A DNA stretch of 64,000 bases from Candidatus Woesearchaeota archaeon (GTDB taxonomy: Archaea > Nanobdellota > Nanobdellia > Woesearchaeales > JAFGLG01), in NCBI GenBank assembly GCA_016928155.1, contig JAFGLG010000017.1, positions 4,134-68,133 of the forward strand, read 5' to 3'. The notes under the pieces were generated by a model, which was not told the DNA's origin, did no database searches, and saw nothing but the letters and a program-made list of their open reading frames with translations. The position numbers and the translations under genes were made by a program. Positions 4,291 through 51,684 of the stretch are shown one piece after another (the first letter of the stretch is position 1; the number at the start of each line of letters is the position of its first letter).

Positions 4291-5343
4291 ATGGCTTCAG
4301 AACCCGTCCCCCAGTTGTATGATATCGCCTGTGAGCTTGACAGCAGGATACAAAGCTATGAAGTTTTCAGGAATGACCTCTTGGCAGCCCACCAGCAGAT
4401 GGTCGCGATGCAGGCAAAGGTCGAGCAGAGCCTGACTGATATCCTGAAATTCGGGCAGAGCACTGTCGGGATAGAGCCTCCGGCAAGGAGGGATATGATC
4501 AACAATGTCTTGTTTGCCGTCGACACACAGATGAGGACAGAGTATGCCATCCCTGCGCTTGAGATCCCGTCAGCAGAAGAATATATCGGCAGCAGGAAAA
4601 GATGTCTTGGCCTTACTGAAGAATATTCTGCGAGGTCTGAGTCTCTCAAGAGATCGGTCGAGAGGCTGGACAGGCAGAAGGAGAGGATGGTGATTTCACT
4701 CATGAAGGAAAGGGATATCTGCTGGAGGACTGGCTTGTATAATCCTCGTCTTGCAGAACCGCTGGTCGCACAGGAGATCAGGAATGTTTATGCCTGCCAA
4801 GATGGCGGGCGGCCCGCTCTGTCTTCGCTCATTTTCATTGACTTCGACAAGTTCGGCAGGTTCAACAAGCTGTATGGCAGCATCGCCACAAATGAGGTGC
4901 TGGCTCTGATTGGACACACCCTCCTTTCTAATCTCGGTCCTGATGACAAGGGTATCAGGTATGGCGGAGACGAATTATTGGTGCTCCTCCCTGGCAGGAG
5001 AGGGGACAGCGAATACTCTGAAGCCATGGAACAGGCTCTCGCTATCCAATCAGCGATATACAACCTGAATCTTGAAGACATCGATCCGGGCATGCATTTC
5101 GAGAAGCTCACTTTCAGTGCTGGCATTGTGCAGTTCAGGCCAAGGGATTCGCAAAGGGATTTTATGGCAGAGGCAAGAGAATGGATCTCAGAGGCGGATC
5201 AGATCTCCAGGCAGGCAAAAAAGGATGGGGGAAACTTGATTCTTGCCTGTGGTCGGGTAGAGGAACCCGAGAATCTGGAGCATGCGGTGCAGCATCATCC
5301 ATTGACCGGTCCTGCTGTCCTCCAAAACATTTTTATTAGGTGA
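4291..5343 (+). CDS. GGDEF-domain protein with an uncharacterised coiled-coil N-terminal domain (signature GGDEL)
   Basis: The C-terminal 180 aa align motif-by-motif with the diguanylate-cyclase palm. RTGLYNPR matches LTGLxNRR. FIDFDKFGRFNKLYG...NEVL matches DIDxFKxINDxxGHxxGDxVL. RYGGDELLVLLPG matches RYGGEEFxxxxP. ADQISRQAKKDGGN matches ADxALYxAKxxGRN. No RxxD I-site is present. Confidence 0.75.
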   Translation: MASEPVPQLYDIACELDSRIQSYEVFRNDLLAAHQQMVAMQAKVEQSLTDILKFGQSTVGIEPPARRDMINNVLFAVDTQMRTEYAIPALEIPSAEEYIGSRKRCLGLTEEYSARSESLKRSVERLDRQKERMVISLMKERDICWRTGLYNPRLAEPLVAQEIRNVYACQDGGRPALSSLIFIDFDKFGRFNKLYGSIATNEVLALIGHTLLSNLGPDDKGIRYGGDELLVLLPGRRGDSEYSEAMEQALAIQSAIYNLNLEDIDPGMHFEKLTFSAGIVQFRPRDSQRDFMAEAREWISEADQISRQAKKDGGNLILACGRVEEPENLEHAVQHHPLTGPAVLQNIFIR

Positions 5344-5359
5344 AGATTGTTTATTTCTG

Positions 5360-5941
5360 ATGAAAGATATTATAACAGAAGAGTTTGCCCTGAAGCTTCT
5401 TAAGAGATATTCAAAGTCTGGTACAAAAGGATCTTACAGGATTGTCTCATCTGATGCAAAGAGACTGAGCAAGCTTGCCGTCGCTTATGCGAAGAAAGCA
5501 GTCAAGAATGGTCATGATATTGACATTGGATTTGTGGCATCAGCTTCACTTCTGCATGATATTGGAAGATTTAGATATCCCCCATTTGCCAAGGACAATA
5601 TCAGGCATGGCATCGAAGGTGCAAGGATCCTCAAGAAAGAAGGGCTTTCAAGGAGATACCAGGATGTCTGCCTGAATCATATTGGTGCTGGTTTACGGAG
5701 GTCTGATATTATCAGGCAGAATCTCCCCCTCCCGAAGAAGGATTTCATGCCGAAGACCAAGGAGGAGATCATCATTTCCTATGCAGACTTGAGATTTCAT
5801 GAGGGTAGAGTTGTGGGTATTGTTAGGGAATCCAGGAGATATGAGTCATTCCAGAAAGGCCTCGGGAAGCGTGTTCTTCAGTTCCACAACCGTGTCATGA
5901 AGCTCATCGGAGCGGATAATAAGGTAAGGAATATAAGATAA
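5360..5941 (+). CDS. HD-superfamily metal-dependent phosphohydrolase (HDIG/YqeK-like)
   Basis: HD signature SLLHDIGRF, plus downstream His residues (HGIEGA, LNHIGAGL) and ISYADLRF. Length is 193 aa. The start is 17 nt downstream of the GGDEF gene. Confidence 0.65.
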   Translation: MKDIITEEFALKLLKRYSKSGTKGSYRIVSSDAKRLSKLAVAYAKKAVKNGHDIDIGFVASASLLHDIGRFRYPPFAKDNIRHGIEGARILKKEGLSRRYQDVCLNHIGAGLRRSDIIRQNLPLPKKDFMPKTKEEIIISYADLRFHEGRVVGIVRESRRYESFQKGLGKRVLQFHNRVMKLIGADNKVRNIR

Positions 5942-6076
5942 TAAGGTAAAAGATATAAACAAGTTCTGATTCTGATGCCCTGTCGATGATGAGGTTATCC
6001 CCGGCTGATCGCATGATGAATTCGAAACGCTCTGAGACAATATATTCAGGATCTGCTTGCTGAGCATCTGCACAAA

Positions 6077-12751: not shown

Positions 12752-12792
12752 ACCGCAATCTTTATTAATGCTTCATTTCTCCGGAACACGAT

Positions 12793-12891
12793 GCGCCGAT
12801 GGTCTAATGGCTATGACAGCGGCCTTCCAAGCAGGTGAAGTCAGCCGTTTATCCGGGTTCGAAACTCTATGCGAAAGTCCCGGTCGGCGCA
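12793..12891 (+). tRNA. tRNA-Gly(UCC)-like with two predicted introns (anticodon loop and T-loop)
   Basis: Acceptor stem GCGCCGA/TCGGCGC is perfect and the discriminator is A. Anticodon stem is GCGGC/GCCGT with loop CTTCCAA, interrupted by about 13 nt. T-stem is CCGGG/CCCGG with loop TTCGAAA, interrupted by 14 nt (CTCTATGCGAAAGT). Removing the insertions gives a 72-nt cloverleaf. Confidence 0.5.
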
Positions 12892-23498: not shown

Positions 23499-24878
23499 TG
23501 AATAGACATAAGCGGACATGCCGCAGTCATTTGTGAAGCTCTTCTCCATCCTAATCAGTTCTGACTCATCAAGCACGCTCTTGTCAAATGGCACATTATC
23601 GTATGTCGAATAGACAATGTATTTCACATTGTATTTCTGGAGCAGCATCGTGATGTTCTCTGTCCACAGGCTTGCTGCATGCGCGTTGTTGTAATAGCCG
23701 AACCATGGCCATGAGTTTGAGAGCACCCATTCCTCAGTTCCCAGCTCTCCTATATGGTCTGATGCCTGCTCGATCGGCCCATTGGTCCTGCACCACCCTC
23801 TCTCCATGATAAGGTCTATTGTCGGTATGGCATAGGCCGCTGAAATGAAGACCAGTATTATGATCATCGCCCTGAATTGCTTTCTTTTTGCGCTCTGCAT
23901 CCATGATTCCATTTCATCTATTGCCTTGAAGGCGAAAAGCAGTATAAATGGCATGATTGCCAGAAGATACCTCTCCAGCTTCATGTTTACAAAGAAGATA
24001 TAGTACGAGAGTGAGATGATCAGGAATATGAAAGCTATCATGGATGTCTCTGTCTTTCTTTGCCTGTATCCATGCAGTCTGTTGACGAAGATGAATAGGC
24101 TGAGCAGGAAGAATATTGACAGCACATGGAAGTTCTTTGCGAAGTTCCAGAAGAAAATGCTGATCGGCTGCCACGTTGTGTATATATCAACAACACTGTA
24201 CTGTGCTGTGAAATCCCAGAGGGGATTCCCATAATTTAGGGAGTTGTATATCATCCATGGTATCAGGGATAGCGCTATCCCTGCAAAGTATGATAACAGC
24301 ATTCTTATTTTGTATTTTTCAAAGAATATCCTAAGGATTAGATATGCCGTGACTGAAGCGCCGAACAATGCAAGAGGGAACCTGAACAGGAATGCGATGC
24401 CTGCACAAGCTCCTGCTCCGAGAATCAGGTATATGCTTTGGCTTTTTCTTTCCTTGATCATGAGATAATAGCTGAGAAGCACGAACAGCATGCCGGCGAT
24501 ATCCCCATATACCCTGAAGCTCCAGGTCAATAGTATTGGCGTCAAGAATGATATCAATAGGAAATAGGTATGATTTTCTGGGTTTAGCTCTTCTTTGATT
24601 ATCAGATAGAACACATACAGCATTGCCAGTGTATAGGCTATCATGAGCAGTTTTGCTGCAGCTAGGCTCTCGCCTGTGATCATCCAGATGCCTGCTATTG
24701 TGTATTCGAGCAGCGGGAACCTGAAGTCCTCTGCAAAATTTGACACGCCTATCCTGGCTCTCGCATTGCCGAGATATACATTCTCATCCCAGATGAGTCC
24801 CGGGTATTGCTGCCAGAGCCATATGTAGAATATCACGGACAGGACAAATATCCCGGCTATCACTGCCTTTTTTTTCAT
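23478..24878 (-). CDS. GT-C family glycosyltransferase (PMT/ArnT-like, GT39/GT83)
   Basis: About 12 transmembrane helices. The first loop YPGLIWDENVYLGNARA carries the DE motif. C-terminal soluble domain. Confidence 0.5.
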   Translation of the reverse strand: MKKKAVIAGIFVLSVIFYIWLWQQYPGLIWDENVYLGNARARIGVSNFAEDFRFPLLEYTIAGIWMITGESLAAAKLLMIAYTLAMLYVFYLIIKEELNPENHTYFLLISFLTPILLTWSFRVYGDIAGMLFVLLSYYLMIKERKSQSIYLILGAGACAGIAFLFRFPLALFGASVTAYLILRIFFEKYKIRMLLSYFAGIALSLIPWMIYNSLNYGNPLWDFTAQYSVVDIYTTWQPISIFFWNFAKNFHVLSIFFLLSLFIFVNRLHGYRQRKTETSMIAFIFLIISLSYYIFFVNMKLERYLLAIMPFILLFAFKAIDEMESWMQSAKRKQFRAMIIILVFISAAYAIPTIDLIMERGWCRTNGPIEQASDHIGELGTEEWVLSNSWPWFGYYNNAHAASLWTENITMLLQKYNVKYIVYSTYDNVPFDKSVLDESELIRMEKSFTNDCGMSAYVYSSADPAE

Positions 24879-24905
24879 TTTGCTATTTCTTATTCGCTTT
24901 TTTTG

Positions 24906-25373
24906 CTATTTCTTCTTCACTTTGATGACGTCGCCGAGCGTGAATCCCTCTCCTGACTCAGATGCTTTTGCTGTTCCCCTGACTTCCTCGTGCTGGTCGA
25001 TGATCTTCACTCCCAGATATTTCTCGAACTTCCTGGCAAGTTCCATGCCTGGCTTGAAATGCCCTGACTCGACTTTATGTATCAGGCTTTCTCTCTCTGC
25101 CATCACCTTTGCCAGCTCTTCCTGCTTGAGTCCTCGTTTCTCTCTTCCCTTCTTGACTATCTCTGCATATTCTGGGATTATGTATTGGACGATTTCTTTG
25201 TTTGGAGCAGGAGTCGCCCTTTGTTTTGCGATGCTTGGGGGTAGTCTCTCAGCTCTTCTCGGCTGTTCTATCACCTTGCCATACCTTGCACAGGCATCGC
25301 ATACGCTTAGCATTGTCCCTTCTATCTCTGCCTTGACAAGTTCTGTATCATTCCCGCACATGTCGCATTGCAT
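24906..25373 (-). CDS. archaeal multiprotein-bridging-factor-1-like protein (zinc ribbon + XRE HTH)
   Basis: MQCDMCG...CDAC zinc ribbon. C-terminal helix-turn-helix GLKQEELAKVMAERESLIHKVESG. Confidence 0.65.
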   Translation of the reverse strand: MQCDMCGNDTELVKAEIEGTMLSVCDACARYGKVIEQPRRAERLPPSIAKQRATPAPNKEIVQYIIPEYAEIVKKGREKRGLKQEELAKVMAERESLIHKVESGHFKPGMELARKFEKYLGVKIIDQHEEVRGTAKASESGEGFTLGDVIKVKKK

Positions 25374-25499
25374 GATTTCACCCTTGTATGATTTTTGTGA
25401 TTCAGCTTAGAAATCTCCGGTTTTATCTTCAATCATCTCATCAATCCCCAGAATACCAGTATCAGCCACCTTTATAAATATTACCCCAATGATTTAGGT

Positions 25500-25913
25500 T
25501 TATGGCAAGTCCAGCTTATTTTCAATAGCTGCACTCAATGTCTTGATGTACAATAATGCCTGCACTTGGATGCCTTTCCAGTCTTTTTCATATATGGGAT
25601 TGCCGTAGTAATGGATGCCATTTCTCTTTGTCCTGAATCTTTCGAAGAAGCTCCAGTCAAGGTCAAGTTCTGGATGCTTGACACAGAGATATGCAAAGAG
25701 GCATTGGTGATTGATGGATCTGACTTTTTCAAATAGGAGATAAGTTGCTGCGAGGGTGCGCAATATATCATAGTAAAGCTTTAATCCTGTATTCCAGTTC
25801 TTGCTGAATATTGCCTGTTCAGCAACTTCTGTATCTCCTTTAGTGATTTCTATGTTTGTCATGATCTTGCCGAAGTCAACCTGTTCCAGATAGACTAAGT
25901 ACCTGTCTGACAT
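25500..25913 (-). CDS. HEPN-domain protein, partner of the adjacent nucleotidyltransferase
   Basis: Rx4-6H motif RTKRNGIHYYG. The start is placed at an internal Met so the gene begins 8 nt after the upstream stop. The track ORF extends to 25997. Confidence 0.45.
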   Translation of the reverse strand: MSDRYLVYLEQVDFGKIMTNIEITKGDTEVAEQAIFSKNWNTGLKLYYDILRTLAATYLLFEKVRSINHQCLFAYLCVKHPELDLDWSFFERFRTKRNGIHYYGNPIYEKDWKGIQVQALLYIKTLSAAIENKLDLP

Positions 25914-25920
25914 GCATCTT

Positions 25921-26487
25921 TTATGCACCTCTTCTTTGCTTCTGAAGTTCGACATATGCTGAGACCTCTTGAGGTATTGTACCTTTGACAACAACACCCC
26001 TCAGTACATTGTAGATCACACTACGTCTGAACTTTTTTAATTCTTCCTTGTTTTTTACGGAGAATATCTGGATTTCTCGACGGAGTTTCGATTCATATTG
26101 TTGGAGGTTGATTTCGCCATCTCCATAGATGAAGATATCAATATCACTTCCGAAATACCAATCGCTCCTGGCAAAACTTCCAAACAGGATTGCGCATTCC
26201 ACATCTGCAAGATCATCAAGGATTCCGCAACTGCACAACTGATTCATTGCATATATCCTCTTCCTCAGTTTGTAGTTTCCATCCTCATGATTGCTGACAT
26301 AGTAAGGCATCTTGCCTTTTTCTTTTGTGCGCGTGATGATCTTCTCTTCCTGGAATCTCTTGAGCCATTTTGCTAGTTTGCTTTCTGCAATCCTGATTTC
26401 CTTGTTCAGTTCGCAGAAATGCCAGTGCTTTGCTGGGTTTTCAAAGAATAATCTCAATACATCCTCTTCCTTGCTATGCCTTCCCAT
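25921..26487 (-). CDS. minimal nucleotidyltransferase (MNT) with N-terminal winged helix
   Basis: ILFGSFARSDWYFGSDIDIFIY matches the GSx(n)SDxD nucleotidyltransferase signature. Confidence 0.6.
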   Translation of the reverse strand: MGRHSKEEDVLRLFFENPAKHWHFCELNKEIRIAESKLAKWLKRFQEEKIITRTKEKGKMPYYVSNHEDGNYKLRKRIYAMNQLCSCGILDDLADVECAILFGSFARSDWYFGSDIDIFIYGDGEINLQQYESKLRREIQIFSVKNKEELKKFRRSVIYNVLRGVVVKGTIPQEVSAYVELQKQRRGA

Positions 26488-26600
26488 ATTACTACCCTTA
26501 AAGGGAAGTATTATTTAAATCTTACCAATAGTTTATATGATAATTTATATAAAAGAGAAGCGATTAGATGATGTATCACACTCAAAGGGGGTGCCATAAC

Positions 26601-26975
26601 ATGGCCAAAAAAGAGGTCGAGATAAAAGCAAAAGGTGATAATTCATTCGCATTCTTATCAATCGTTGCCATAATAGCAATAGTCGCATTAGTGGTTCTGG
26701 TGACAGGAGTAGGAAAGAGACAGGCAATGCCCACCTATGTCACAACAGGGGTTGAAGGTGGAGATTTGGTTGGGCAGCCGATTGCTGAAGTGGGAGAAGA
26801 ACAAGCACCAAATAGACCACTAACAAAAGTTGATCCGCATACTGATACTGGATGTGAAGTGGTTGATAACTGGTGGCCGATTCCTGATACATGTAAAGCA
26901 AGACAAGGGAGTAATTGTCAGACTTGTTATTTTGATTCAGGCGGGAACTGCAAATGTAAAGAATTCCCTGGTTAA
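26601..26975 (+). CDS. small Cys-rich membrane-anchored or secreted protein
   Basis: Transmembrane segment FAFLSIVAIIAIVALVVLV. C-terminal CEVVDNWW...CKARQGSNCQTCYFDSGGNCKCKE. The start is ambiguous between 26568 and 26601. Confidence 0.3.
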   Translation: MAKKEVEIKAKGDNSFAFLSIVAIIAIVALVVLVTGVGKRQAMPTYVTTGVEGGDLVGQPIAEVGEEQAPNRPLTKVDPHTDTGCEVVDNWWPIPDTCKARQGSNCQTCYFDSGGNCKCKEFPG

Positions 26976-27035
26976 ACTAGTATTTTCTCATTTTTACTTT
27001 GATTTTCATCTTTATGTATTATCATGATAGCCAGA

Positions 27036-27075
27036 ATCCCAGAATAAGCCAGATATCTTAGTGATCTCTTCATGG
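27036..27075. repeat. left direct repeat flanking the Bro-N cassette
   Basis: atcccagaataagccagatatcttagtgatctcttcatgg. Confidence 0.6.
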
Positions 27076-27181
27076 TGGGGGGTAGGTTGGCAGGTTTTTA
27101 AAGGTTGCTTTATCTTTTTTCCGGAAATCCACTGGTCATTTCGGAGTGAAATATATAAACCATTAAATTATTAGTAAGTTT

Positions 27182-28021
27182 ATGGATAAAGATAATGCTT
27201 TGGTTGTTTTCCAGGACAGGAGAATCCGTAGGATTTGGCATCAGGACCAGTGGTTTTTCTCAGTCATTGATGTCGTTCAGGCTTTGACTGACAGCTCTAA
27301 TCCAAGGAATTACTGGAGTATGCTTAAGAAAAGGGAATCTGAATATGAAATTGACTTGTCCACATTTTGTGTACAACTGAAGCTGCTCTCTGCAGATGGC
27401 AAGTATTATAAGACAGATTGCGCAAATGTAAAAGCGCTTTTTAGGATTATACAATCAATTCCCTCAAAAAAAGCTGAGCCTTTCAAGCTGTGGCTCGCAC
27501 AAGTGGGATATGAACGAATTCAGGAGATAGAGGATCCAGAGCTTGCTCAAGAGCGTATGAAAGAGCTTTATGAGCAGAAAGGTTACTCGAAGGCATGGAT
27601 AGAAAAACGCCTTAGGGGAATTGCTGTTAGGCAGGATCTGACTGATGAATGGAAAAAACGTGGAGTTGATAGCCAAATCGGTTTCTCAATATTGACAGCA
27701 GAGATATCCAAAGCAACTTTTGGCATGACCCCATCTGAATATAGACTATTCAAGAATTTGAAAAATGAGAACCTGAGGGATCACATGACCGACTTGGAAC
27801 TGATCCTCAATATGTTGGGAGAAGCATCGACAGCTGAACTAGAACGGGTTCATGATCCAAATACTTTTTCTGAGCATAAACAGGTTTCTAGAGATGGAGG
27901 AAAAGTTGCAGGAAAGGCAAGGCAAGAATTAGAGAACAAGACTAAGAAACAAGTTATTAGCGAGGAAAATTATCTTGACGAGCCTGAAAAAGTAAAAAGG
28001 AAGAAACTCCCGAAAGAGTAA
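27182..28021 (+). CDS. Bro-N/KilA-N domain protein with RhuM/antirepressor-like C-terminal region
   Basis: N-terminus VVFQDRRIRRIWHQDQWFFSVIDVVQAL is Bro-N-like. The downstream segment LTDEWKKRGV...NLRDHMTDLELILN is conserved. Confidence 0.5.
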   Translation: MDKDNALVVFQDRRIRRIWHQDQWFFSVIDVVQALTDSSNPRNYWSMLKKRESEYEIDLSTFCVQLKLLSADGKYYKTDCANVKALFRIIQSIPSKKAEPFKLWLAQVGYERIQEIEDPELAQERMKELYEQKGYSKAWIEKRLRGIAVRQDLTDEWKKRGVDSQIGFSILTAEISKATFGMTPSEYRLFKNLKNENLRDHMTDLELILNMLGEASTAELERVHDPNTFSEHKQVSRDGGKVAGKARQELENKTKKQVISEENYLDEPEKVKRKKLPKE

Positions 28022-28145: not shown

Positions 28146-28301
28146 AGCGCGGAGAGGGACTTTCGGCGCCTTGGCGTTGAAAGTAAGCCACGCCAGTGGC
28201 TGCACTCGAACCCCCGAATGATCGCTGTCTGTTTTATATCATCGCCGAAGCTCAATACAGCAATCTGCAGGCGATTGCCTTAGCCGCTTGGCTACCCGCG
28301 C
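28146..28301 (-). tRNA. tRNA-Cys(GCA) with three predicted introns (anticodon, variable region, T-loop)
   Basis: On the minus strand the acceptor stem is GCGCGGG/TCCGCGC with discriminator U73. D-loop residues A14, G18, G19 and A21 are present. Anticodon stem is ATCGC/GCGAT with loop CTGCAGA (G37), split by 18 nt. T-stem is GGGGG/CCCTC with loop TTCGAGT, split by 45 nt. A further 25 nt sit between the anticodon and T arms. Confidence 0.45.
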
Positions 28302-28524: not shown

Positions 28525-28662
28525 CGCGCCTAGAGGGACTTTCAGGGCACTGAAAGTTCGCAACTTCAGTTGCCGCATTTGAACCCTCGATCTACAGCTC
28601 TCTTTGCTTCTATATCCAAAGCATAGAAGGCTGTCGCCCTATCCAGGCTAGGCTATAGGCGC
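28525..28662 (-). tRNA. tRNA-Arg(UCU) with two predicted introns (anticodon, T-loop)
   Basis: On the minus strand the acceptor stem is GCGCCTA/TAGGCGC with discriminator G. Anticodon stem is ACAGC/GCTGT with loop CTTCTA(A), split by a 24-nt intron. That intron contains TATAGAAG, which can pair with the anticodon loop. T-stem is GAGGG/CCCTC with loop TTCAAAT, split by 39 nt ending in GAAAGT. Confidence 0.5.
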
Positions 28663-41475: not shown

Positions 41476-41976
41476 TTACTCTTCCATGATTACCTTGGTC
41501 TTGTCCAGGATTTTTTTTGCTGTATTGAGCAGGTCTGCATATTCTCCGTTTTCCAGTGTTGTTTTTGTGTTGTATTGATACTTTTCCCTCAGGCTGATTG
41601 CTGTTGTTTCATGTGCATTGATGAGTGCCACTTTTTGTATATCCTCCTTATTTAGGTTTATTTTCTTGTCATCGATCAATGACTCGATCAGGGAGAATGT
41701 GCATTCCTGGTTCCTGCTTTCGAATCCCTCTTTTAAGAGTATTGACAAGAAACAATGGTATATTGTGTAGAAAAGGCTGATTGAGCACCAGTCTGTGAAT
41801 CCTCCTTTGTTTAGGTATAATGTGGCTTTCAGGTTGTGTTCTGCCTTGGTCATGTGTTCTTTGGCTCTCGTCAGGCTTGGCTCTGTCCTGACAATGCCCC
41901 TGTGTTTGTGCCCTTTCTCAAGCTCTTTCTGCGCTTTGTTGAGGCACCATCTTAGTTTATTCTTTGCGTGACTCAT
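41476..41976 (-). CDS. HEPN-like all-helical protein, partner of the adjacent nucleotidyltransferase
   Basis: Helical HEPN-like pattern (AEHNLKATLYLNKGGF..FYTIYHCFLSILLKEGFES). No clear Rx4-6H motif. Confidence 0.35.
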   Translation of the reverse strand: MSHAKNKLRWCLNKAQKELEKGHKHRGIVRTEPSLTRAKEHMTKAEHNLKATLYLNKGGFTDWCSISLFYTIYHCFLSILLKEGFESRNQECTFSLIESLIDDKKINLNKEDIQKVALINAHETTAISLREKYQYNTKTTLENGEYADLLNTAKKILDKTKVIMEE

Positions 41977-42653: not shown

Positions 42654-42693
42654 AAGGCTAAGGAGATAAGAAGTATCCTTGATGAGGATTATT
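42654..42693. repeat. 40-bp direct repeat copy B
   Basis: Identical 40-mer. It still encodes KAKEIRSILDEDY followed by a stop. It abuts the stop codon of the large LysM protein gene. Confidence 0.9.
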
Positions 42694-45448
42694 AGGCTGT
42701 ACCGCCATTTCCTGGCGGGTATGGGTACGAATCAACATACTCAGGTGGTGGCGGGGGGGTTGGAGGCCTCAATTGAAGGAATGAATAAGGATATCCTGTG
42801 AGCACTCTATTCCTATAATATTCTTGATACCAATCCCTCATGTTTTGCATGATCTGGTTAGATTGTTCAGATGAGACACCATATACATAGAAACCTCTTG
42901 ATACAGGAGTTGTTACCCCATATTTTTCCTCTAGCTTGTCATGCACAAATTGGTTTGCATCTGCTGAGCAGAAATCGCAATCTCCGATTGAGAAATGAGT
43001 GTTTAGTCTTTGTTCTGCATTTCTTATTGATTTGTCTCCCACTAGTCCTTTATTGGTTATTGTAGGTTCATCATATGAGAACATTGGCCCCATTGCATCA
43101 TCAAGTCTTTGCTCGAAATCATCGCCGAAATCATATTGTGATTGCCACTGTGACTCCCATAATGATTGATCCCATATTAATTCAGGTGCAAAAGGGTCAG
43201 CTCGCTGCTGTCTCATTTCTGCAAAATATTCATCAATTGAATCAGAAACATCTCTCAGTCTTAGTGGCTCATCTACTATCGTGGTCTCAAATCCTAATTG
43301 AAGATTTTCTGCTAATGCATCAGACCTGAAGAGTGAAGATGGTGATCTGTCTCCAATGGCGCAGAATAGGCTGGATGACCCGCAGTCCTGGAATGGCTCA
43401 AAATCTGCGAGGAACTCCTCTGAGTGATGTGCATCAGTCACAAATGTAGGCTCTGTGTCAAGTAGGTCTAGGTTCCCGATGTCGAATGTTGTGGTATGCC
43501 TTATTTCCTCTCTTTGTCTTTCATTGATGGCTTGCATTTGCGAGGTTGAGATCGTGCTCATCTGAATCCTCCCCCCCGCACCAGCCGAGTACTGTCTAAC
43601 TTCTGTTGCTGTCCCGGGGTTTATAAATATCTGCTCTCCTGCAAAGATAAGGTCTCCTCCTCTATCGCTTCTCTCCTGGATATTAGGATTCATTCTGACA
43701 AGGTCCTGCCATGTCACTGTTTGTCCTGTTTGCATGCTTAGATCTTGTGCAATGTGTGATAATGTGTCCCCTGATTTGACATCGTAAGTCCCGACTGCCA
43801 CATCAAATGATCTTGATGGCCTGTGTGAAACAGCTGGGGCTTCAGGATCAGGTTGAGGTGGTGTGTTTGTTGCCACCTGTTGAGGAGTTTCTACTGGCCC
43901 TAGTTGTATCACGGGCCCGTATGGTTCTGTATAGGCTAAGAACTGTTCACTGGCGCTGTATCCTCCAAAACCCATTAGACCCGCCAGTGTCGGATCTACA
44001 CCTGAACCAATCAACATACTGCCCAGAGGATCATTGAAATCAAATACTTGTTGGCCTTCTGCTATCTGAATTGAATATACCCCATCTCCCATATTGCCTG
44101 TTATGGGCTGTATTGAAATTATGGGCCCATCATTTCTAGGTACAGTATTGAGATAGACTTGAGTACCATCACTTAATCCTGTTGGGGATGATCCGAAAGT
44201 CAATGTTATCGGATCAGATGAATGGCTTTGTGTGAGTATTGTTTGAGGTTGCTGGACTCCTAACTGTTGTATCCTGAGATCTGTTCCTTCTTCTGCCCTT
44301 ACAAGCCCTTGTCCATCAACCCAGGTGTATGATGCCTGTCCGGTTGCATGCACCCCCGCCAGCATTCCGTGTGTTCTAGGGAATGTGAGATCTGCTGCCC
44401 CATTCATATCCGTATATGTTTTCCCAGTGGTTGCATCTAAAATCAGGACAGGTTGCTGCGTTGTCTCCATCCTTATCTCAACACTATTCTCATCGACAAC
44501 TCTCACAGGTCCTAAGAGTCTTGTTGTATCTCCTAGGGTTATGACTTGTATTGACTCTGAATCATCTGCCAGAAGCAAATGGCTGTTGCTTGAAGTCCTG
44601 ATATCTGAGTCATCACCTATTGAATATACTTGAAGATTATAATCATTGTCATTCTCTTTTACATAAGTCGCTCTTGGTGTGATGCCCCTATCATTTGGGA
44701 GTCTTATCTCATGATCATCTATTGTGTATCTTCCTTCAGTGCCAACTGCACCACCATAATATAACTCAACTCCAAGATTACCTTGATCATCTCCTGATCT
44801 GATATAAGTCTGCTGCATTGGTCCGACGATTGTGATTGTCTCAGAACTGTCAGAGGAGCTTACTACAACTGTGTTCCCTGTTGCATCTGTGGTAAATGTT
44901 GTCTCTGTATCAGCTTGAAGGATAAGATCATTGCTCATCTTTACTTGATTATGCTGTGCATCATATCCTTCAACAGTTGATCCGGGTCCGCCCCCTTTCA
45001 CAGTGATGGGATTCTGTTGGTTTTGTGCGTTTCCACCTGTTATTGTAAATCCGCCACCATCACCACTAACAGCCTCAACTGATGATGCCTGTCCTATAGC
45101 AGATAATGGGAGAGGAGTCCCACCAGCTGTGTTTGTCAATGTTGTTCCTGATATTGATATTCCTGGACCGCTCTTTATCTGTGTGCTACCATAGGTTGCA
45201 TCTGAATTAAGGATAACTGTGTAGCTTCCTGTGTTCATATTAGAAAGGTCTACGCTTCCTCTAGTTATTGTTATTGTATTGCCTGATTTTATTGCCTGTA
45301 CCCCTTGAGAACTGATTCCGGTAAAATCTTGAAGTTGGTCATCAGAAAGTGTCTCCTCTTCATCATCTCCTGTCCCTTCTTCTGTTGGCTGAGCAGCAAC
45401 ATTTATGACAATCAAGAGCAATACTAGAAGGACAATGATTTTCTTCAT
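42692..45448 (-). CDS. large secreted protein with LysM domain and Pro-rich C-terminus
   Basis: Signal peptide MKKIIVLLVLLLIVINVAAQ. LysM motif YDVKSGDTLSHIAQDL...WQDLVRMNP. C-terminal PPTPPPPPEY. Start overlaps the upstream gene stop (ATGA). Confidence 0.55.
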   Translation of the reverse strand: MKKIIVLLVLLLIVINVAAQPTEEGTGDDEEETLSDDQLQDFTGISSQGVQAIKSGNTITITRGSVDLSNMNTGSYTVILNSDATYGSTQIKSGPGISISGTTLTNTAGGTPLPLSAIGQASSVEAVSGDGGGFTITGGNAQNQQNPITVKGGGPGSTVEGYDAQHNQVKMSNDLILQADTETTFTTDATGNTVVVSSSDSSETITIVGPMQQTYIRSGDDQGNLGVELYYGGAVGTEGRYTIDDHEIRLPNDRGITPRATYVKENDNDYNLQVYSIGDDSDIRTSSNSHLLLADDSESIQVITLGDTTRLLGPVRVVDENSVEIRMETTQQPVLILDATTGKTYTDMNGAADLTFPRTHGMLAGVHATGQASYTWVDGQGLVRAEEGTDLRIQQLGVQQPQTILTQSHSSDPITLTFGSSPTGLSDGTQVYLNTVPRNDGPIISIQPITGNMGDGVYSIQIAEGQQVFDFNDPLGSMLIGSGVDPTLAGLMGFGGYSASEQFLAYTEPYGPVIQLGPVETPQQVATNTPPQPDPEAPAVSHRPSRSFDVAVGTYDVKSGDTLSHIAQDLSMQTGQTVTWQDLVRMNPNIQERSDRGGDLIFAGEQIFINPGTATEVRQYSAGAGGRIQMSTISTSQMQAINERQREEIRHTTTFDIGNLDLLDTEPTFVTDAHHSEEFLADFEPFQDCGSSSLFCAIGDRSPSSLFRSDALAENLQLGFETTIVDEPLRLRDVSDSIDEYFAEMRQQRADPFAPELIWDQSLWESQWQSQYDFGDDFEQRLDDAMGPMFSYDEPTITNKGLVGDKSIRNAEQRLNTHFSIGDCDFCSADANQFVHDKLEEKYGVTTPVSRGFYVYGVSSEQSNQIMQNMRDWYQEYYRNRVLTGYPYSFLQLRPPTPPPPPEYVDSYPYPPGNGGTA

Positions 45449-46470
45449 GGTTTCACCGTGAATGTGATGACTTTCCAGCCTGTCATGTTCTTTTCATCTG
45501 TGGCGCTGATGTTTGTCTCGAATGAACCTATCTCACTTGGTGTGAAGCTTATTATCCCTGTGTATTTTGCAATAGGCACTTTCGGATTGCTTGATTTGAA
45601 TATCATATAATCATCTTCTGGGTCATATGCCTCGACCTTGTGATAGAATGATTCATTCACTTCAGCTTCTAGGTCAGCAACTTGCACTATTGGGGCATGA
45701 TTCTCAATGTCATATGATGCTGCAAATAGGAAGACATAGGGAACTTCATTTATGCTCACTGTCTCAGGATCTTGGATTATATAGACAACTGAATCTTCAT
45801 AGGAGATTGTATCTATCTGTAGGTTCAGGTCTGATGATACTTCAAGCAGTGTGCTTGTTGGTATTAGTCTGGGATATTTCACTATTGAGTCAGTTATTCT
45901 CTCAGAGGCTTTAAGGATAGTCATCATTCTTGATGGCCTCGAATATTGGAATTCTGTGAAAGTCTTAACTTTTTCACCTTGCTTCACTTCAAAGGGGAAT
46001 TCCACTTTGAATACGACTGTCTCATCGCTGAATTTAACATCAGTTGCATATCTCAAATTGTCGAATTGGTATCCTTGGAACCTATATGTCTTGAAGTCAT
46101 TGAGACAATACTGGAGAGCTTCATCGACATAGTCTTCTAATTCTATCTCTAAGCTGTTCTCTGTGTGCACTGATTTTGCACCTTTGTAATAGAAATATGG
46201 CACTGGTGAATATATTGTTTCCAAATGAAGTGGGGGTATATGGTGGTATCCTCCTTTGAGCCCAAGATGAAAATATCCTATCTCTGCAACATCATCGACG
46301 CATTTCTGCGTGGACATCCTTATCTGCTCGAAGTCGGTTATACTCGCCTGTTCTACTGCCATCTCCATTTCTCCCTTGTTTCTTAGGGATGACATGTAGA
46401 TTATGAGGCTTATGATCATTATGAGCACTATGCCGAGAACTATGAATACTGTGACCTGCCCTCTTTTCAT
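45445..46470 (-). CDS. pilin-like protein with class III (type IV prepilin-like) signal peptide
   Basis: MKRG|QVTVFIVLGIVLIMIISLIIY has a basic N-terminus, a G/Q cleavage-like site and a hydrophobic stretch. 341 aa. Confidence 0.4.
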   Translation of the reverse strand: MKRGQVTVFIVLGIVLIMIISLIIYMSSLRNKGEMEMAVEQASITDFEQIRMSTQKCVDDVAEIGYFHLGLKGGYHHIPPLHLETIYSPVPYFYYKGAKSVHTENSLEIELEDYVDEALQYCLNDFKTYRFQGYQFDNLRYATDVKFSDETVVFKVEFPFEVKQGEKVKTFTEFQYSRPSRMMTILKASERITDSIVKYPRLIPTSTLLEVSSDLNLQIDTISYEDSVVYIIQDPETVSINEVPYVFLFAASYDIENHAPIVQVADLEAEVNESFYHKVEAYDPEDDYMIFKSSNPKVPIAKYTGIISFTPSEIGSFETNISATDEKNMTGWKVITFTVKP

Positions 46471-48064: not shown

Positions 48065-50662
48065 TCAGACTAGTGATTGACTTGGATTTCTAATTAGATA
48101 TTGTTGCAACCAGTAGTCTTTCATTTTTGTTTTTATCAATTCCTTCGCTTCATTTTGTTTACTCGGATCAAGCTGCCATATGTTGATTGTTCTCTGCTGG
48201 TTATTGACAGAAGTTAATGCTGTTGTTCCAAGTTCAGTTCCGACCTTCTTGGCCACTGCTTGCCAGCATGCATCATCACACCATGACTCTCCTGACACCG
48301 GAATGTCTGAGTATGTTCTTTTCCACTCAGTCCCTTCTCTATGATACCATCTTGTTGGAGCCCCCTGTCCTCGCTCAAATTCTCCAAACCTCAGATCATC
48401 TCTGTGTTCATATTCATCTGCTTTTTCAGTCAAATCTGAACGTAATACAGCCGGACCTTCAAGAGTTGTAGTATCTGAATTAGATGCTGGTTGCACATCA
48501 GACGCAAAGGGTGGCAAATCACTTAATAAAGGATTTTGCAGATATTGCCGTCCAGAAATAGGGTCGAATAGTGTGGGTTGGTAGAACGGTTTGTTGCTGA
48601 ATAAATTTCTTGCATCAAATCTTACTCCATCATCCACTTGTTCATCCGCTTGTTTAGTAGCCTCATGAATTTTATTTGCAGCTTCATCTGTTGCTCCAGA
48701 TAGATCCTTTGTTGTTATGGTCTTTAGTTTATGGTCTTGTCCTACTACTCCTTGCTTTTGTTTGCCCCAAAAAGATTCTGCAATCTTTATTTCCTCACCG
48801 ATGAATATCAGGTTTTTTCCGCTAAGTGTACTGTCACTTGCAAGCTCTATGCATCTTCCTTCAATATGCGGGTTCATCTCCATCAAATCCTGGACAGTAC
48901 GTCCATAAAGGTCAGCGATCTTCTGCAATGTATCTCCCTTTTTTACCTCAACATACCCCCTTTCAAAGGCATCGTCAGTATCATCACCAGTCTGCTGTGG
49001 AACTACCGCTTCAATATGATCCGAACCCACAAGGGCATTGGATGTTTGTTGTGCCTGAGGTTGAAGGATAAGTGGTACTGTTGTATCTTGGTTGTGGGCT
49101 GTGTCATCCAAAATTTTGACAGATGGTGCATTTTTCTCAGTAACTATTACAACTTTTGGAGTTTCAACCGTGGTTGTAGAATCGCCTTGATTTGTTGGAT
49201 TAGCCACAGGTATTTCTCGTGTAACAGATGAATCTGATATTGGATTCTTTAATTCTGAAACTTTGCCTATATCATTTTGGGTATGTATACACTTACCATA
49301 ATTGATATTATATGTAACACTATAATCAAAAAAAATTTGGGGCCCTTGTATACTAAATTTGGATTGTGGGGTTTGTGTTTCATCATAATTAATAAAAATA
49401 TCAGATTCGATATTTGGAGAATCACCAACTTTTATCCGTAGAGGCCTACGGTTATCATCACCTGCAAGTAAATCACTTCTTGACAAAGTGATCAAGTTAT
49501 AAGGGACACCATTTTCAACATAATTGACCATACTAGTATCACTAACAGAGGGGAATATTATTTGTTCAACTTTATTATCCTGAAATGAGAGCTCATGTTC
49601 GGAATAAACGTTATAATGACCATCTTTATAGGGAAAATTGGATCTTTGACCACTTATACTATTAGGTTTCCCATCATGAAAAGCTAATCTTGCCATTCCA
49701 AGTGTGATAATGCCTGTATCACCATACTCGCACTTAACATTTAAATTTGGATCATCACTTCCTACAGAAATACGATTAATAGCAACATAATCGTCGTGAA
49801 GGTTGATCCTAAAAGGGCCCACAAATTCCTCGCTCTGGGTTGTAGGTAGGGGCCAAGATGTATCTGAAGTTGTATCTTTGGAAATGGCAATATCAAAGTC
49901 TTTATAATGTAAAATACCTGATTTTATAGATGAAACATAATAACTATTTTCTTTTCTACTAAATCTTACAGCTTCCCCGCTATGGACAGTATAAGTCAAA
50001 TCTCCCAATGTAATAACTCTACCTGAGCTTTCCAAATTCTTCAAACTAGAAATAATTACAGATTTAGAGGGGTCTACACTTATGGTGCTGCCGACAAGAT
50101 CGCCTGAAACTTTGACACCATCAATACTTAATTCTTCATTATTATATTCCACTGAAACCTCCTTCACACCAGAATAAGAAAAAAGAACATCTTTATCATT
50201 ATAGGTAATTTTTTCTGATCCACCAGTATTCGAAAATTGGACATTTGAGATAACTAAGATGCTATTTTTATTAGTTATGCGAAACTTATTATTTCCAATA
50301 GCTGAGACTGACTCTGCTTTCACTTTATTCAGATCAAGCGTGTTCTTCCCGTTTGTCACAACCCCATTTTGGACTGTGACTGAGCTCGCTCCATCAAGTT
50401 TCAGGGGCATCCCATTGTATTTTGCATTTGTTTTCAGTACTACTTGATTGTTTCCGAAACTACTGAGTTCTGGTTCCCCGCCAGTCACTGTAAAGACATT
50501 ATCAGCAAATGTTCCGCTTAATCCTTTGCATACATCAGATGAAGCCCTGGTTTCACATTCTGTTTGAAAAACCTGCTCCTCGTCTGTTTCCTCAACAGGT
50601 GGATCTTGAGCAACCACTCCAGCTACCAAGAGCAAAAGGACCAGCAGTATTATCTTCTTCAT
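48065..50662 (-). CDS. large secreted LysM-domain protein, paralog of 42692..45448
   Basis: Signal peptide MKKIILLVLLLLVAGVVAQ. LysM motif YVEVKKGDTLQKIADLYGRTVQDLMEMNP. Confidence 0.55.
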   Translation of the reverse strand: MKKIILLVLLLLVAGVVAQDPPVEETDEEQVFQTECETRASSDVCKGLSGTFADNVFTVTGGEPELSSFGNNQVVLKTNAKYNGMPLKLDGASSVTVQNGVVTNGKNTLDLNKVKAESVSAIGNNKFRITNKNSILVISNVQFSNTGGSEKITYNDKDVLFSYSGVKEVSVEYNNEELSIDGVKVSGDLVGSTISVDPSKSVIISSLKNLESSGRVITLGDLTYTVHSGEAVRFSRKENSYYVSSIKSGILHYKDFDIAISKDTTSDTSWPLPTTQSEEFVGPFRINLHDDYVAINRISVGSDDPNLNVKCEYGDTGIITLGMARLAFHDGKPNSISGQRSNFPYKDGHYNVYSEHELSFQDNKVEQIIFPSVSDTSMVNYVENGVPYNLITLSRSDLLAGDDNRRPLRIKVGDSPNIESDIFINYDETQTPQSKFSIQGPQIFFDYSVTYNINYGKCIHTQNDIGKVSELKNPISDSSVTREIPVANPTNQGDSTTTVETPKVVIVTEKNAPSVKILDDTAHNQDTTVPLILQPQAQQTSNALVGSDHIEAVVPQQTGDDTDDAFERGYVEVKKGDTLQKIADLYGRTVQDLMEMNPHIEGRCIELASDSTLSGKNLIFIGEEIKIAESFWGKQKQGVVGQDHKLKTITTKDLSGATDEAANKIHEATKQADEQVDDGVRFDARNLFSNKPFYQPTLFDPISGRQYLQNPLLSDLPPFASDVQPASNSDTTTLEGPAVLRSDLTEKADEYEHRDDLRFGEFERGQGAPTRWYHREGTEWKRTYSDIPVSGESWCDDACWQAVAKKVGTELGTTALTSVNNQQRTINIWQLDPSKQNEAKELIKTKMKDYWLQQYLIRNPSQSLV

Positions 50663-51684
50663 CTTGTCACCGTGAATTTTATCATTTTCCAGTTTGTTGC
50701 ATTGAGTTCATCAACAACTGACAGGTTCACATCATACACACCTGTGACAGTTGGCGTGAAATTGATGAATCCTGAGTATCTTCCCACTGGCAGTGCTGGA
50801 TTGTCTGAAAAGAACTCGAAAGAGTCATAGTCTGCGTCAAAGCTTTCTATCTCATAGTAGAACGTCTCATTCACCTTTGCTTCCATGTCCTCGATGGGTA
50901 ATGTGGGCGGGTTGTTCATTGGGCTTGTCTTTGTCGAAAACAGGAACATGTAAGGCACCCCTCCGTCACTCAGTAGGCTCTTGTCCTGCACTACATATGT
51001 CACGATTGTCCCGTATGACAGCGTGTCTATCTGGAGGTCATGCTTTGCAGACATTTCTAATATTGTAGAGGTGGGGGTGTATCTTGGATCCTTTATGACC
51101 TCAAGGACTATTTCCTTCGCTGCATCTATTATGTTTAGCATCCTGGCTTGTTGAACATATTCGAATTCCTCATAGCTCTTCACAGCATCCCCTTTCTTTA
51201 TTTCAAGAGGATATCTTATCTTGAATATGATGTTCTTAATCCCGACTTCAACATCGGCTGTGACATTTGGCTCATTGAATGAGTATCCCATCATCTTGTA
51301 GTTCCTGAAGCCCTGCAGGCAATAAGGGAATGCCTCTTCGATTGCCTCTGATAGTTCGCGCTCAAGGTCTGTCTTATTCACCAGTCCGACATATCCCTCA
51401 AAATAGAAATAGGGTATATCTGAATATATTGATTTGAAATGCAGCGGGGGCAGGGTATAATATCCTCCTTTAAGCCCCATAGAGAAGAATTGCGTCTCAG
51501 CAACATCCTCGACGCATTTCTGTGTGAGCATCCTTATCTGCTCGAAGTCTGTCACCCTTGCCTGCTCCACTGTCATCTCAATCTCTCCCTTGTGTCTCAG
51601 GGCTGTCATGTAGATGACCAGGCTCACTATCATCAGGATTACTATGCCGAGAACTATGAATACTGTGACCTGGCCTCTTTTCAT
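50659..51684 (-). CDS. pilin-like protein with class III signal peptide, paralog of 45445..46470
   Basis: MKRG|QVTVFIVLGIVILMIVSLVIY. 341 aa, collinear with its paralog along the whole length. Confidence 0.4.
   Translation of the reverse strand: MKRGQVTVFIVLGIVILMIVSLVIYMTALRHKGEIEMTVEQARVTDFEQIRMLTQKCVEDVAETQFFSMGLKGGYYTLPPLHFKSIYSDIPYFYFEGYVGLVNKTDLERELSEAIEEAFPYCLQGFRNYKMMGYSFNEPNVTADVEVGIKNIIFKIRYPLEIKKGDAVKSYEEFEYVQQARMLNIIDAAKEIVLEVIKDPRYTPTSTILEMSAKHDLQIDTLSYGTIVTYVVQDKSLLSDGGVPYMFLFSTKTSPMNNPPTLPIEDMEAKVNETFYYEIESFDADYDSFEFFSDNPALPVGRYSGFINFTPTVTGVYDVNLSVVDELNATNWKMIKFTVTR

Follow-up and report, generated by a model that had tools for sequence, protein, structure and literature searches.

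A tRNA-Gly(UCC) gene of a Woesearchaeota archaeon that very probably carries two bulge-helix-bulge introns, one of them in the T-loop

In this study, we analyzed a stretch of 64,000 nts from a Candidatus Woesearchaeota archaeon (GenBank assembly GCA_016928155.1, contig JAFGLG010000017.1, positions 4,134 to 68,133 of the forward strand; hereafter the window), and in particular a tRNA-Gly-like locus of 99 nts at its positions 12793-12891. This locus is very probably a functional, chromosomal tRNA-Gly(UCC) gene of a Woesearchaeota (DPANN) archaeon that carries two bulge-helix-bulge (BHB) introns. A sequence-only reading of the same DNA had proposed a tRNA-Gly with one intron in the anticodon loop and another in the T-loop, and the present analysis agrees with it: both junctions can fold into BHB motifs of the hBH type, and the spliced product is a canonical tRNA of 72 nts. 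The gene and its parts are as follows.

12793..12891, + strand: tRNA-Gly(UCC) gene, 99 nts, three exons and two introns, CCA not encoded (ARAGORN after splicing in silico)
12761..12768, + strand: TATA-like box TTTATTAA, centred about 28 nts upstream of tRNA nucleotide 1 (read from the sequence)
12793..12829, + strand: exon 1, tRNA positions 1-37, with the acceptor 5' strand, the D arm, the anticodon stem 5' strand and CTTCCA (anticodon TCC)
12830..12842, + strand: intron 1, 13 nts, AGCAGGTGAAGTC, canonical position 37/38, hBH or bulge-helix-loop (BHL) type
12843..12863, + strand: exon 2, positions 38-59, with A38, the anticodon stem 3' strand, the variable loop TTAT, CCGGG and the T-loop part TTCGAA
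12864..12877, + strand: intron 2, 14 nts, ACTCTATGCGAAAG, non-canonical position 59/60 in the T-loop, hBH type
12878..12891, + strand: exon 3, with T60, the T stem 3' strand CCCGG, the acceptor 3' strand TCGGCGC and discriminator A73

When the gene is parsed by hand, all arms of a tRNA are found. The acceptor stem is formed by GCGCCGA and TCGGCGC and is followed by discriminator A73; after a TG linker, the D arm reads GTCT-AATGGCTA-TGAC; the anticodon stem (GCGGC with GCCGT) closes the loop CTTCCA-(13 nts)-A, and the T stem (CCGGG with CCCGG) closes the loop TTCGAA-(14 nts)-T. Once the gene is spliced, the exon-exon junctions (marked by a slash) read CTTCCA/AGCCG and GGTTCGAA/TCCCGG or, written longer, CTTCCA/AGCCGT and GGGTTCGAA/TCCCGG. 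Judged by its spacing alone, the TATA-like box is a putative archaeal promoter. The locus lies among archaeal chromosomal genes, as the window encodes topoisomerase VI A and B, Hef, XPD, Nre, SMC, AlaRS, CysRS and a class I synthetase. Moreover, the independent Logan assembly of run SRR13394437 is 100% identical across all overlaps.

The place at which a BHB motif is cut is established knowledge. Each strand of the motif runs from the outer helix through a 4-nt strand of the central helix into a 3-nt bulge and is cut after the second base of that bulge (PMC3239211, PMC4090602). In the 37/38 intron, C32-T33-T34-C35 pairs with the intron sequence GAAG (4/4 Watson-Crick), leaving C36 A37/A as the 5' bulge and T C/A38 as the 3' bulge, and the anticodon stem serves as the outer helix (5/5 pairs, one of them G.U). 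In the 59/60 intron, T54-T55-C56-G57 pairs with intron CGAA (4/4 Watson-Crick), the bulges are A58 A59/A and A G/T60, and the outer helix is the T stem with 5/5 Watson-Crick pairs. Both outer helices, for which at least 2 bp are demanded, stack directly on the central helix. Both motifs are reproduced in the unconstrained minimum-free-energy fold of the whole precursor (RNAfold). No inner helix h' was found in either Gly intron, where a loop of 6-7 nts stands in place of the h' of the strict hBHBh' form; the two introns therefore belong to the relaxed hBH or BHL class.

The T-loop motif also accounts for the sequence GAAAGT (12873-12878), which lies directly before CCCGG (12879-12883). The sequence-only reading had pointed out this ending of the T-loop insertion. 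Its position was correct, and the end of the intron was set one base too far 3', the final T being nucleotide 60. GAA complements T54-T55-C56, AG supplies the intron bases of the 3' bulge, and T belongs to the exon. Hence, GAAAGT does not constitute a signal of its own but consists of the complement of the near-universal T-loop bases TTC, two bulge bases and T60. Given this complementarity to near-universal T-loop bases, one kind of intron can sit at position 59/60 of any tRNA, and the same logic covers the presence of a 59/60 intron in each of the four tRNA genes detected in this genome.

The other three of these genes encode tRNA-Arg, tRNA-Cys and tRNA-Gln. The first two lie in the window on the opposite strand, and the third is located in the same genome at a distance of 3.4 kb upstream of the window.

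28525..28662, - strand: tRNA-Arg(UCU) (anticodon TCT), 138 nts, two introns; 75 nts in ARAGORN after splicing
28623-28600, - strand: Arg 37/38 intron, 24 nts; central helix of 3 bp plus a C35.A mismatch; inner helix h' of 5 bp
28577-28539, - strand: Arg 59/60 intron, 39 nts; TTCA with TGAA, 4/4 Watson-Crick; insertion ending in CTGAAAGT
28696-28689, - strand: Arg TATA-like box TTTAAAAA; a T-run follows the gene
28146..28301, - strand: tRNA-Cys(GCA), 156 nts, two introns, discriminator U73; 73 nts in ARAGORN after splicing; a T-run follows the gene
28264-28227, - strand: Cys 37/38 intron, 38 nts; central helix of 3 bp plus a C35.A mismatch
28204-28160, - strand: Cys 59/60 intron, 45 nts; TTCG with CGAA, 4/4 Watson-Crick; insertion ending in CCGAAAGT
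L002 602-752, + strand: tRNA-Gln(CUG), three introns

The same ending had been claimed for the T-loop insertions of the two other tRNAs in the window, and it is indeed present in both (TGAAAG/T in tRNA-Arg and CGAAAG/T in tRNA-Cys). BHB folding, which the sequence-only reading had named as the check on each junction, is found at the two Gly introns as well as at the four of Arg and Cys. At every one of the six junctions in the window, an outer helix of 5 bp is combined with a central helix of 4 bp in exact register and with bulges of 3 nts; of these central helices, four are perfectly paired, and the remaining two consist of 3 bp and a C.A mismatch. Base 57, which is G, A and G in Gly, Arg and Cys, is matched by C, T and C as its intron partner. 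The identity features of the spliced tRNAs are correct, with A73 in Gly and U73 in Cys. A TATA-like box lies about 28-38 nts upstream of each gene and a T-run lies downstream, and CCA is encoded in none of them. In addition, the window contains a CysRS gene, which calls for a tRNA-Cys. In tRNA-Gln, the introns are 22 nts in the D-loop (HBh' type, with an inner helix of TGGAA and TTCCA), 29 nts at 37/38 and 27 nts at 59/60; the last of them ends in CGAATG/T, and the two intron bulge bases are thus not invariant. A 59/60 intron is present in 4/4 tRNA genes seen in the genome (Gly, Arg, Cys and Gln).

Some other assignments for these genes were considered and discarded. ARAGORN parsed tRNA-Cys with an 18-nt intron and a long variable arm, whereas the 38-nt reading gives a normal variable loop of 5 nts together with BHB geometry. 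The label tRNA-Gln(ttg) that it assigned to L002 was replaced by eye with a three-intron tRNA-Gln(CTG). The Haloferax tRNA-Trp intron is an analogue that suggested a C/D-box guide RNA inside the 38-nt anticodon-loop intron of tRNA-Cys, and inspection by eye found proper C and D boxes to be absent from it. Two further sequence features were observed here: a perfect 9-bp hairpin (28436-28414, - strand; CCAGATTCG ... CGAATCTGG) in the 223-nt spacer between Arg and Cys, which has no Rfam match, and a 14-nt exact match, GCTCAATACAGCAA, between the Cys anticodon-loop intron (28250-28263) and, on the opposite strand, a HEPN-domain ORF (41517-41530), which is probably due to chance.

To place the T-loop intron in a wider context, GTDB species genomes were scanned with the pattern CCGGGTTCRA-N(9-39)-CCCGGYCGGCGCA, which leaves the content of the insertion unconstrained; the survey is ascertained on T-loop insertions, and its counts do not give the frequency of such introns. 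A total of 106 stretches were obtained. The acceptor 5' strand matches in about 60 of them, which are titled as Woesearchaeota/Nanoarchaeota, Aenigmatarchaeota, Asgard lineages, Hadarchaeota, Bathyarchaeota and others; the rest are chance matches in G+C-rich bacteria. After deletion of the T-loop insertion, most archaeal stretches were called tRNA-Gly (UCC, CCC or GCC). Among 58 non-redundant tRNA-Gly-like genes, the helix between positions 54-57 and the intron is fully paired (4/4) in 41 and has three or more of its four pairs in 55, while registers shifted by 1-3 nts gave 4/4 pairs in only 2 of 348 gene-by-register tests. At position 57 and its partner, 27 genes have A-T, 21 have G-C and 8 have a non-pair. 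These pairings indicate that the 59/60 helix is kept, with compensatory changes, among archaeal tRNA-Gly genes. The two intron bulge bases vary (AA, AG, AT, TG and others). The 59/60 site is thus in wide use among the tRNA-Gly genes of DPANN, Asgard, Hadarchaeota and Bathyarchaeota records.

Short 59/60 introns like that of the Gly gene were found in Nanoarchaeia/Woesearchaeota records (L042, ACAAAAATTGCGAAAG; L068, AAGCTGCGAAAA), and the D-loop, 37/38 and 59/60 sites occur in all combinations of presence and absence among tRNA-Gly genes. For example, the tRNA-Gly(UCC) gene beside SMC in L010 (GCA_028279655.1) has a 24-nt D-loop intron only, and a Rifle-type Woesearchaeota contig (L008, identical with L070) has introns of 35 nts in the D-loop, 13 nts at 37/38 (TTATTTAGAGGTC) and 31 nts at 59/60. 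The latter gene was labeled tRNA-Asn(att) by ARAGORN and is by eye a three-intron tRNA-Gly(TCC). Relatives were reached by a search with the DHH protein that flanks the Gly gene, followed by contig look-ups. This protein is 100% identical to MBN1386682.1 of a Candidatus Woesearchaeota archaeon, and its next homologues are only about 52% identical; the synteny search through it found no close relatives in GTDB genomes. A "tRNA-Stop" reported by ARAGORN at L004 was rejected as spurious, being AT-rich and overlapping the start of the DHH gene. As a side observation, 'uncultured Methanosarcinales archaeon' records from third-party-annotation metagenome-assembled genomes (MAGs) (L076, L090 and L048) have T-loop introns identical to those of Woesearchaeota/Nanoarchaeota (L068, L079 and L082), so the taxonomic labels of these Methanosarcinales records look unreliable.

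The survey also bears on the exact cut site in the T-loop. The same two-intron gene could be cut at 60/61 (intron CTCTATGCGAAAGT), which would give a mature T-loop TTCGAAA rather than TTCGAAT; both registers yield a 7-nt T-loop and a valid cloverleaf, and the mature sequences of Arg and Cys are identical in either. We nevertheless consider this register very unlikely. The BHB rule assigns two bases of a bulge to the intron and the third to the exon; when the T stem is taken as outer helix and TTCG with CGAA as central helix, it leads to 59/60. Furthermore, a T precedes the T stem 3' strand in 55 of the 58 surveyed genes, as expected of a conserved exon nucleotide 60, and the precedent in ARMAN-2 is also at 59/60 (PMC3239211).

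We then asked how standard tRNA finders treat the gene. ARAGORN, run by default and with -i on the whole window, reported no tRNA gene, and a lower score threshold yielded noise only. Rfam, at the gathering threshold and at E <= 10, found no tRNA in the whole window either. With regard to the Gly gene, ARAGORN, which the sequence-only reading had suggested as a check, made no call before splicing; after both insertions were deleted, whose lengths of 13 and 14 nts had been given correctly as what keeps the cloverleaf from closing, it called a 72-nt tRNA-Gly(tcc). When only the anticodon-loop insertion was deleted, nothing was reported. When only the T-loop insertion was deleted, ARAGORN still called tRNA-Gly(tcc), misreading the anticodon-loop insertion as a long variable arm. 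It is therefore the T-loop insertion that hides the gene, because its removal alone restores the call. In a 181-nt slice, Rfam gave a sub-threshold tRNA-clan match at 12793-12890 (tRNA-Sec model, 21.3 bits versus a cutoff of 47 bits) in which the T-loop carries an insertion of 16 nts and the first intron is mistaken for a variable arm. In slice searches, tRNA-Arg was seen by Rfam only as a misaligned partial match, and tRNA-Cys had no Rfam match at all. We also used a custom scan in which each segment of 8-150 nts that follows the hBH rule is deleted before ARAGORN is run. Exactly three genes (Gly, Arg and Cys) were identified in the 64-kb window, and none in 10 dinucleotide-preserving shuffles of it, which excludes chance.

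The failure of ARAGORN and Rfam to call the gene would also fit a decaying tRNA pseudogene or a tRNA-derived remnant with random insertions, the more so in a genome known only as metagenome-assembled sequence. This explanation is highly improbable. All stems are intact, and both insertions complement the adjacent loop in exact register. A perfect 4-bp helix at a fixed register has a chance of 1/256 per site, and it was seen at 4 of 6 sites, including all three T-loops. Moreover, many genomes retain this architecture and show covariation in it, signals resembling a promoter and a terminator occur, and all four tRNA genes seen in the genome would have to be pseudogenes.

Several points weigh against a functional two-intron gene. 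Splicing and the exact cut sites of the Gly introns are predicted from base pairing. Motifs that lack an inner helix, as these do, are cut inefficiently by strict alpha4 and alpha'2 splicing endonucleases (EndA), and the central helices of the Arg and Cys anticodon-loop introns contain a C.A mismatch. The T-run downstream of the Gly gene is weak (TTT GATTCTTT), and neither EndA nor RtcB was found among the 54 window ORFs checked against Pfam.

Two other explanations concern the fate of the insertions. If they were retained in the mature RNA, the outcome would be an unusual tRNA or a tRNA-like RNA in which both the anticodon loop and the T-loop are enlarged. This can hardly be the case, as a T-loop of 21 nts would destroy the T-loop/D-loop elbow, an anticodon loop of 20 nts with the anticodon paired to GAAG could not decode, and the conserved BHB geometry would have no rationale. 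Self-splicing introns or trans-spliced split-tRNA halves are just as implausible: group I introns are known from archaea and from the anticodon loops of bacterial tRNAs (PMC6125680), but the insertions of 13-45 nts are far below the size of ribozyme (group I or group II) introns and are excluded by it, no Rfam intron family was found in the window at E <= 10, and the exons of all three genes are collinear within 99-156 nts on one strand, which argues against split or permuted tRNAs.

For the two-intron tRNA-Gly(UCC) gene, a simple pathway can be proposed by reference to the known archaeal system. The gene would be transcribed from its own TATA-type promoter. In the pre-tRNA, the 3' part of each intron would pair with the four loop nucleotides that follow the exon stem (GAAG with 32-35 and CGAA with 54-57), so that an outer helix of 5 bp and a central helix of 4 bp would form, together with two bulges of 3 nts. 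EndA would cut after the second bulge base, that is, after 37 and 59 and before 38 and 60, and an RtcB-type ligase would join the three exons. The tRNA ends would be trimmed and CCA added, because none is encoded in the gene. As the Gly introns have no inner helix, the organism would need an EndA of broad specificity.

Position 59/60 is a listed non-canonical intron site (PMC4090602), and introns there are a documented class (PMC3239211). The closest parallel is the pre-tRNA-Cys(GCA) of ARMAN-2 (Candidatus Micrarchaeum acidiphilum), whose 13-nt hBH intron at 59/60 is cleaved in vitro (Fujishima et al. 2011, PMC3239211; PMC5829648; PMC12397907). The ARMAN-2 epsilon2 enzyme and crenarchaeal (alpha-beta)2 enzymes both cut this substrate in vitro (PMC3239211, PMC5829648, PMC12397907). 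Also, tRNA genes are disrupted more often where DPANN alpha4 EndA with an L3 insertion, among them one from a Woesearchaeota genome, are present (PMC5829648). The ARMAN-2 case and the present one share a DPANN host, a T-loop intron exactly at 59/60 of similar length (13 versus 14 nts), the T stem as outer helix and the lack of an inner helix, and the tRNA-Cys(GCA) of the window likewise has a 59/60 intron. They differ in that ARMAN-2 belongs to Micrarchaeota rather than Woesearchaeota, and in that the 59/60 intron is here always accompanied by a 37/38 intron, in 4/4 tRNA genes seen. The three-unit epsilon2 enzyme and the in vitro cleavage are those of ARMAN-2, whereas the present case is known from sequence.

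Other comparisons are more distant. As relayed in PMC4090602, Thermoproteales (Sugahara 2008, Fujishima 2010) also have several BHB introns per gene at canonical and non-canonical sites including 59/60, as well as similar introns in unrelated tRNAs of one genome, as seen here for Arg and Cys. However, these are TACK hyperthermophiles with (alpha-beta)2 EndA, in contrast to a mesophilic-looking DPANN genome of about 45% G+C, and their sites are far more scattered than the two sites of the window plus the D-loop site of tRNA-Gln. The canonical 37/38 BHB intron (Marck and Grosjean 2003, as cited in PMC4090602) has the same anticodon stem as outer helix, the same pairing with 32-35 and 3-nt bulges, but the 13-nt Gly intron lacks h' and is of the relaxed hBH rather than the strict hBHBh' form. 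In the Asgard lineages Atabeyarchaeia and Freyarchaeia, 92-95% of tRNA genes have introns, over half of them several (PMC11291895); most or all tRNA genes are interrupted there, often at non-canonical sites, as in the genome studied here. Our survey found 59/60 introns of tRNA-Gly in both Atabeyarchaeia chromosomes and in many Hod- and Heimdallarchaeota records. Asgard archaea are nevertheless another superphylum, and their intron sequences are unrelated to those of the window. In both Atabeyarchaeia chromosomes, the T-loop intron of the tRNA-Gly-like gene is 33-34 nts long, and the tRNA-Gly(CCC) of Hod-, Heimdall- and Hermodarchaeota has a conserved 29-nt intron at 59/60, TGAAA..CTC..GAG..CTGAAAN/T (L020, L030, L038, L040, L046, L057, L065, L091, L093 and others). 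T-arm introns of Cyanidioschyzon merolae and of nucleomorphs resemble the present ones in that insertions within several arms (D, anticodon and T) of one tRNA gene are removed in a BHB-dependent manner (PMC3728597, PMC9602550, PMC4090602); they are carried by eukaryotic nuclear or nucleomorph genes and processed by a heterotetrameric TSEN-type enzyme, and the resemblance implies no evolutionary link. The layout of the Gly gene, with introns at 37/38 and 59/60, is hence already known in archaea, of which it is a further well-formed example.

Besides the shared position, the T-loop introns of Arg and Cys resemble each other in sequence. They align at about 30 of 39 positions with a score of 40 (8.9 +/- 4.7 for shuffled sequences; z = 6.6), a value reached by 0 of 500 shuffles, while the two tRNA bodies are otherwise unrelated except for similar T stems. 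On this alignment, the two introns are clearly homologous, and their homology indicates intron spread or local gene conversion of the kind reported in Thermoproteales (PMC4090602). A metagenome-wide search for this intron family with the pattern GTTCRANTGCNGCNACTG...ACTTTCA returned only four matches, all of them chance matches in coding sequence and none in a tRNA, and so far gave no sign of further members. Within each of the two introns, ACTTTCA(G) complements the intron's own 3' end, (C)TGAAAGT; such an alternative pairing would compete with the central helix of the BHB motif. The Arg intron also contains the repeats ACTGAAGT and CTGAAAGT, which hint at an origin by local duplication.

A mobile element was considered next to tRNA-Cys. 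A Bro-N domain ORF (27182-28021, + strand) abuts the 3' end of this gene, and the flank at 24000-28000, in which a Pol-beta nucleotidyltransferase ORF (25921-26487) is also found, has a lower G+C content (0.416). An element integrated at tRNA-Cys was rejected when a direct repeat of the tRNA 3' end was not found; the flank itself may be a mobile-element remnant. Elsewhere in the window, an intergenic C/D-box sRNA-like element (5982-6038, + strand; GATGATGA ... CTGA ... TGATGA ... CTGA) has Rfam matches below the gathering score (snoPyro_CD, 33.3 bits; sR14, 30.7 bits), and genes for fibrillarin and Nop56/58 lie just past the window end (L003 3919-5544). A GGDEF (diguanylate cyclase) protein is encoded at 4291-5343 (+ strand) of this DPANN archaeon, followed by an HD-domain ORF (5360-5941). 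Two paralogous gene pairs (42692-46470 and 48065-51684, - strand) encode LysM-containing proteins of 918 and 865 aa, each followed by a protein of 341 aa; the two 341-aa proteins are identical at 166 of 339 positions, and the G+C content of the region is about 0.40.

The main value of the Gly finding is practical, since tRNAs of DPANN genomes can be hidden from standard finders. All three tRNA genes of this 64-kb DPANN stretch are invisible to ARAGORN and to the Rfam tRNA model. T-loop introns could thus make tRNA counts used for MAG quality artefactual, and claims of "missing" or "split" tRNAs in Nanoarchaeota/Woesearchaeota can be artefacts of such introns (e.g. PMC5829648; bioRxiv 10.64898/2026.05.13.725050). 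The finding supplies a simple rule by which 59/60 introns can be spotted: TTCR, two bases, an intron that ends in YGAA plus two bases, T60 and the T stem. With respect to evolution, the Arg and Cys introns, being homologous, provide a DPANN example of the intron spread known from Thermoproteales. It is a more speculative and on balance doubtful proposal that every tRNA gene of this deep-branching Woesearchaeota lineage has a 59/60 intron and that a BHB intron family has been spreading by means of the universally conserved T54-Psi55-C56-R57 as its pairing partner. If true, such a family would in effect be a mobile or duplicative intron whose landing site is universal; alternatively, lineage-wide 59/60 introns might be a device that hides the integration site in the tRNA T-arm from mobile elements.

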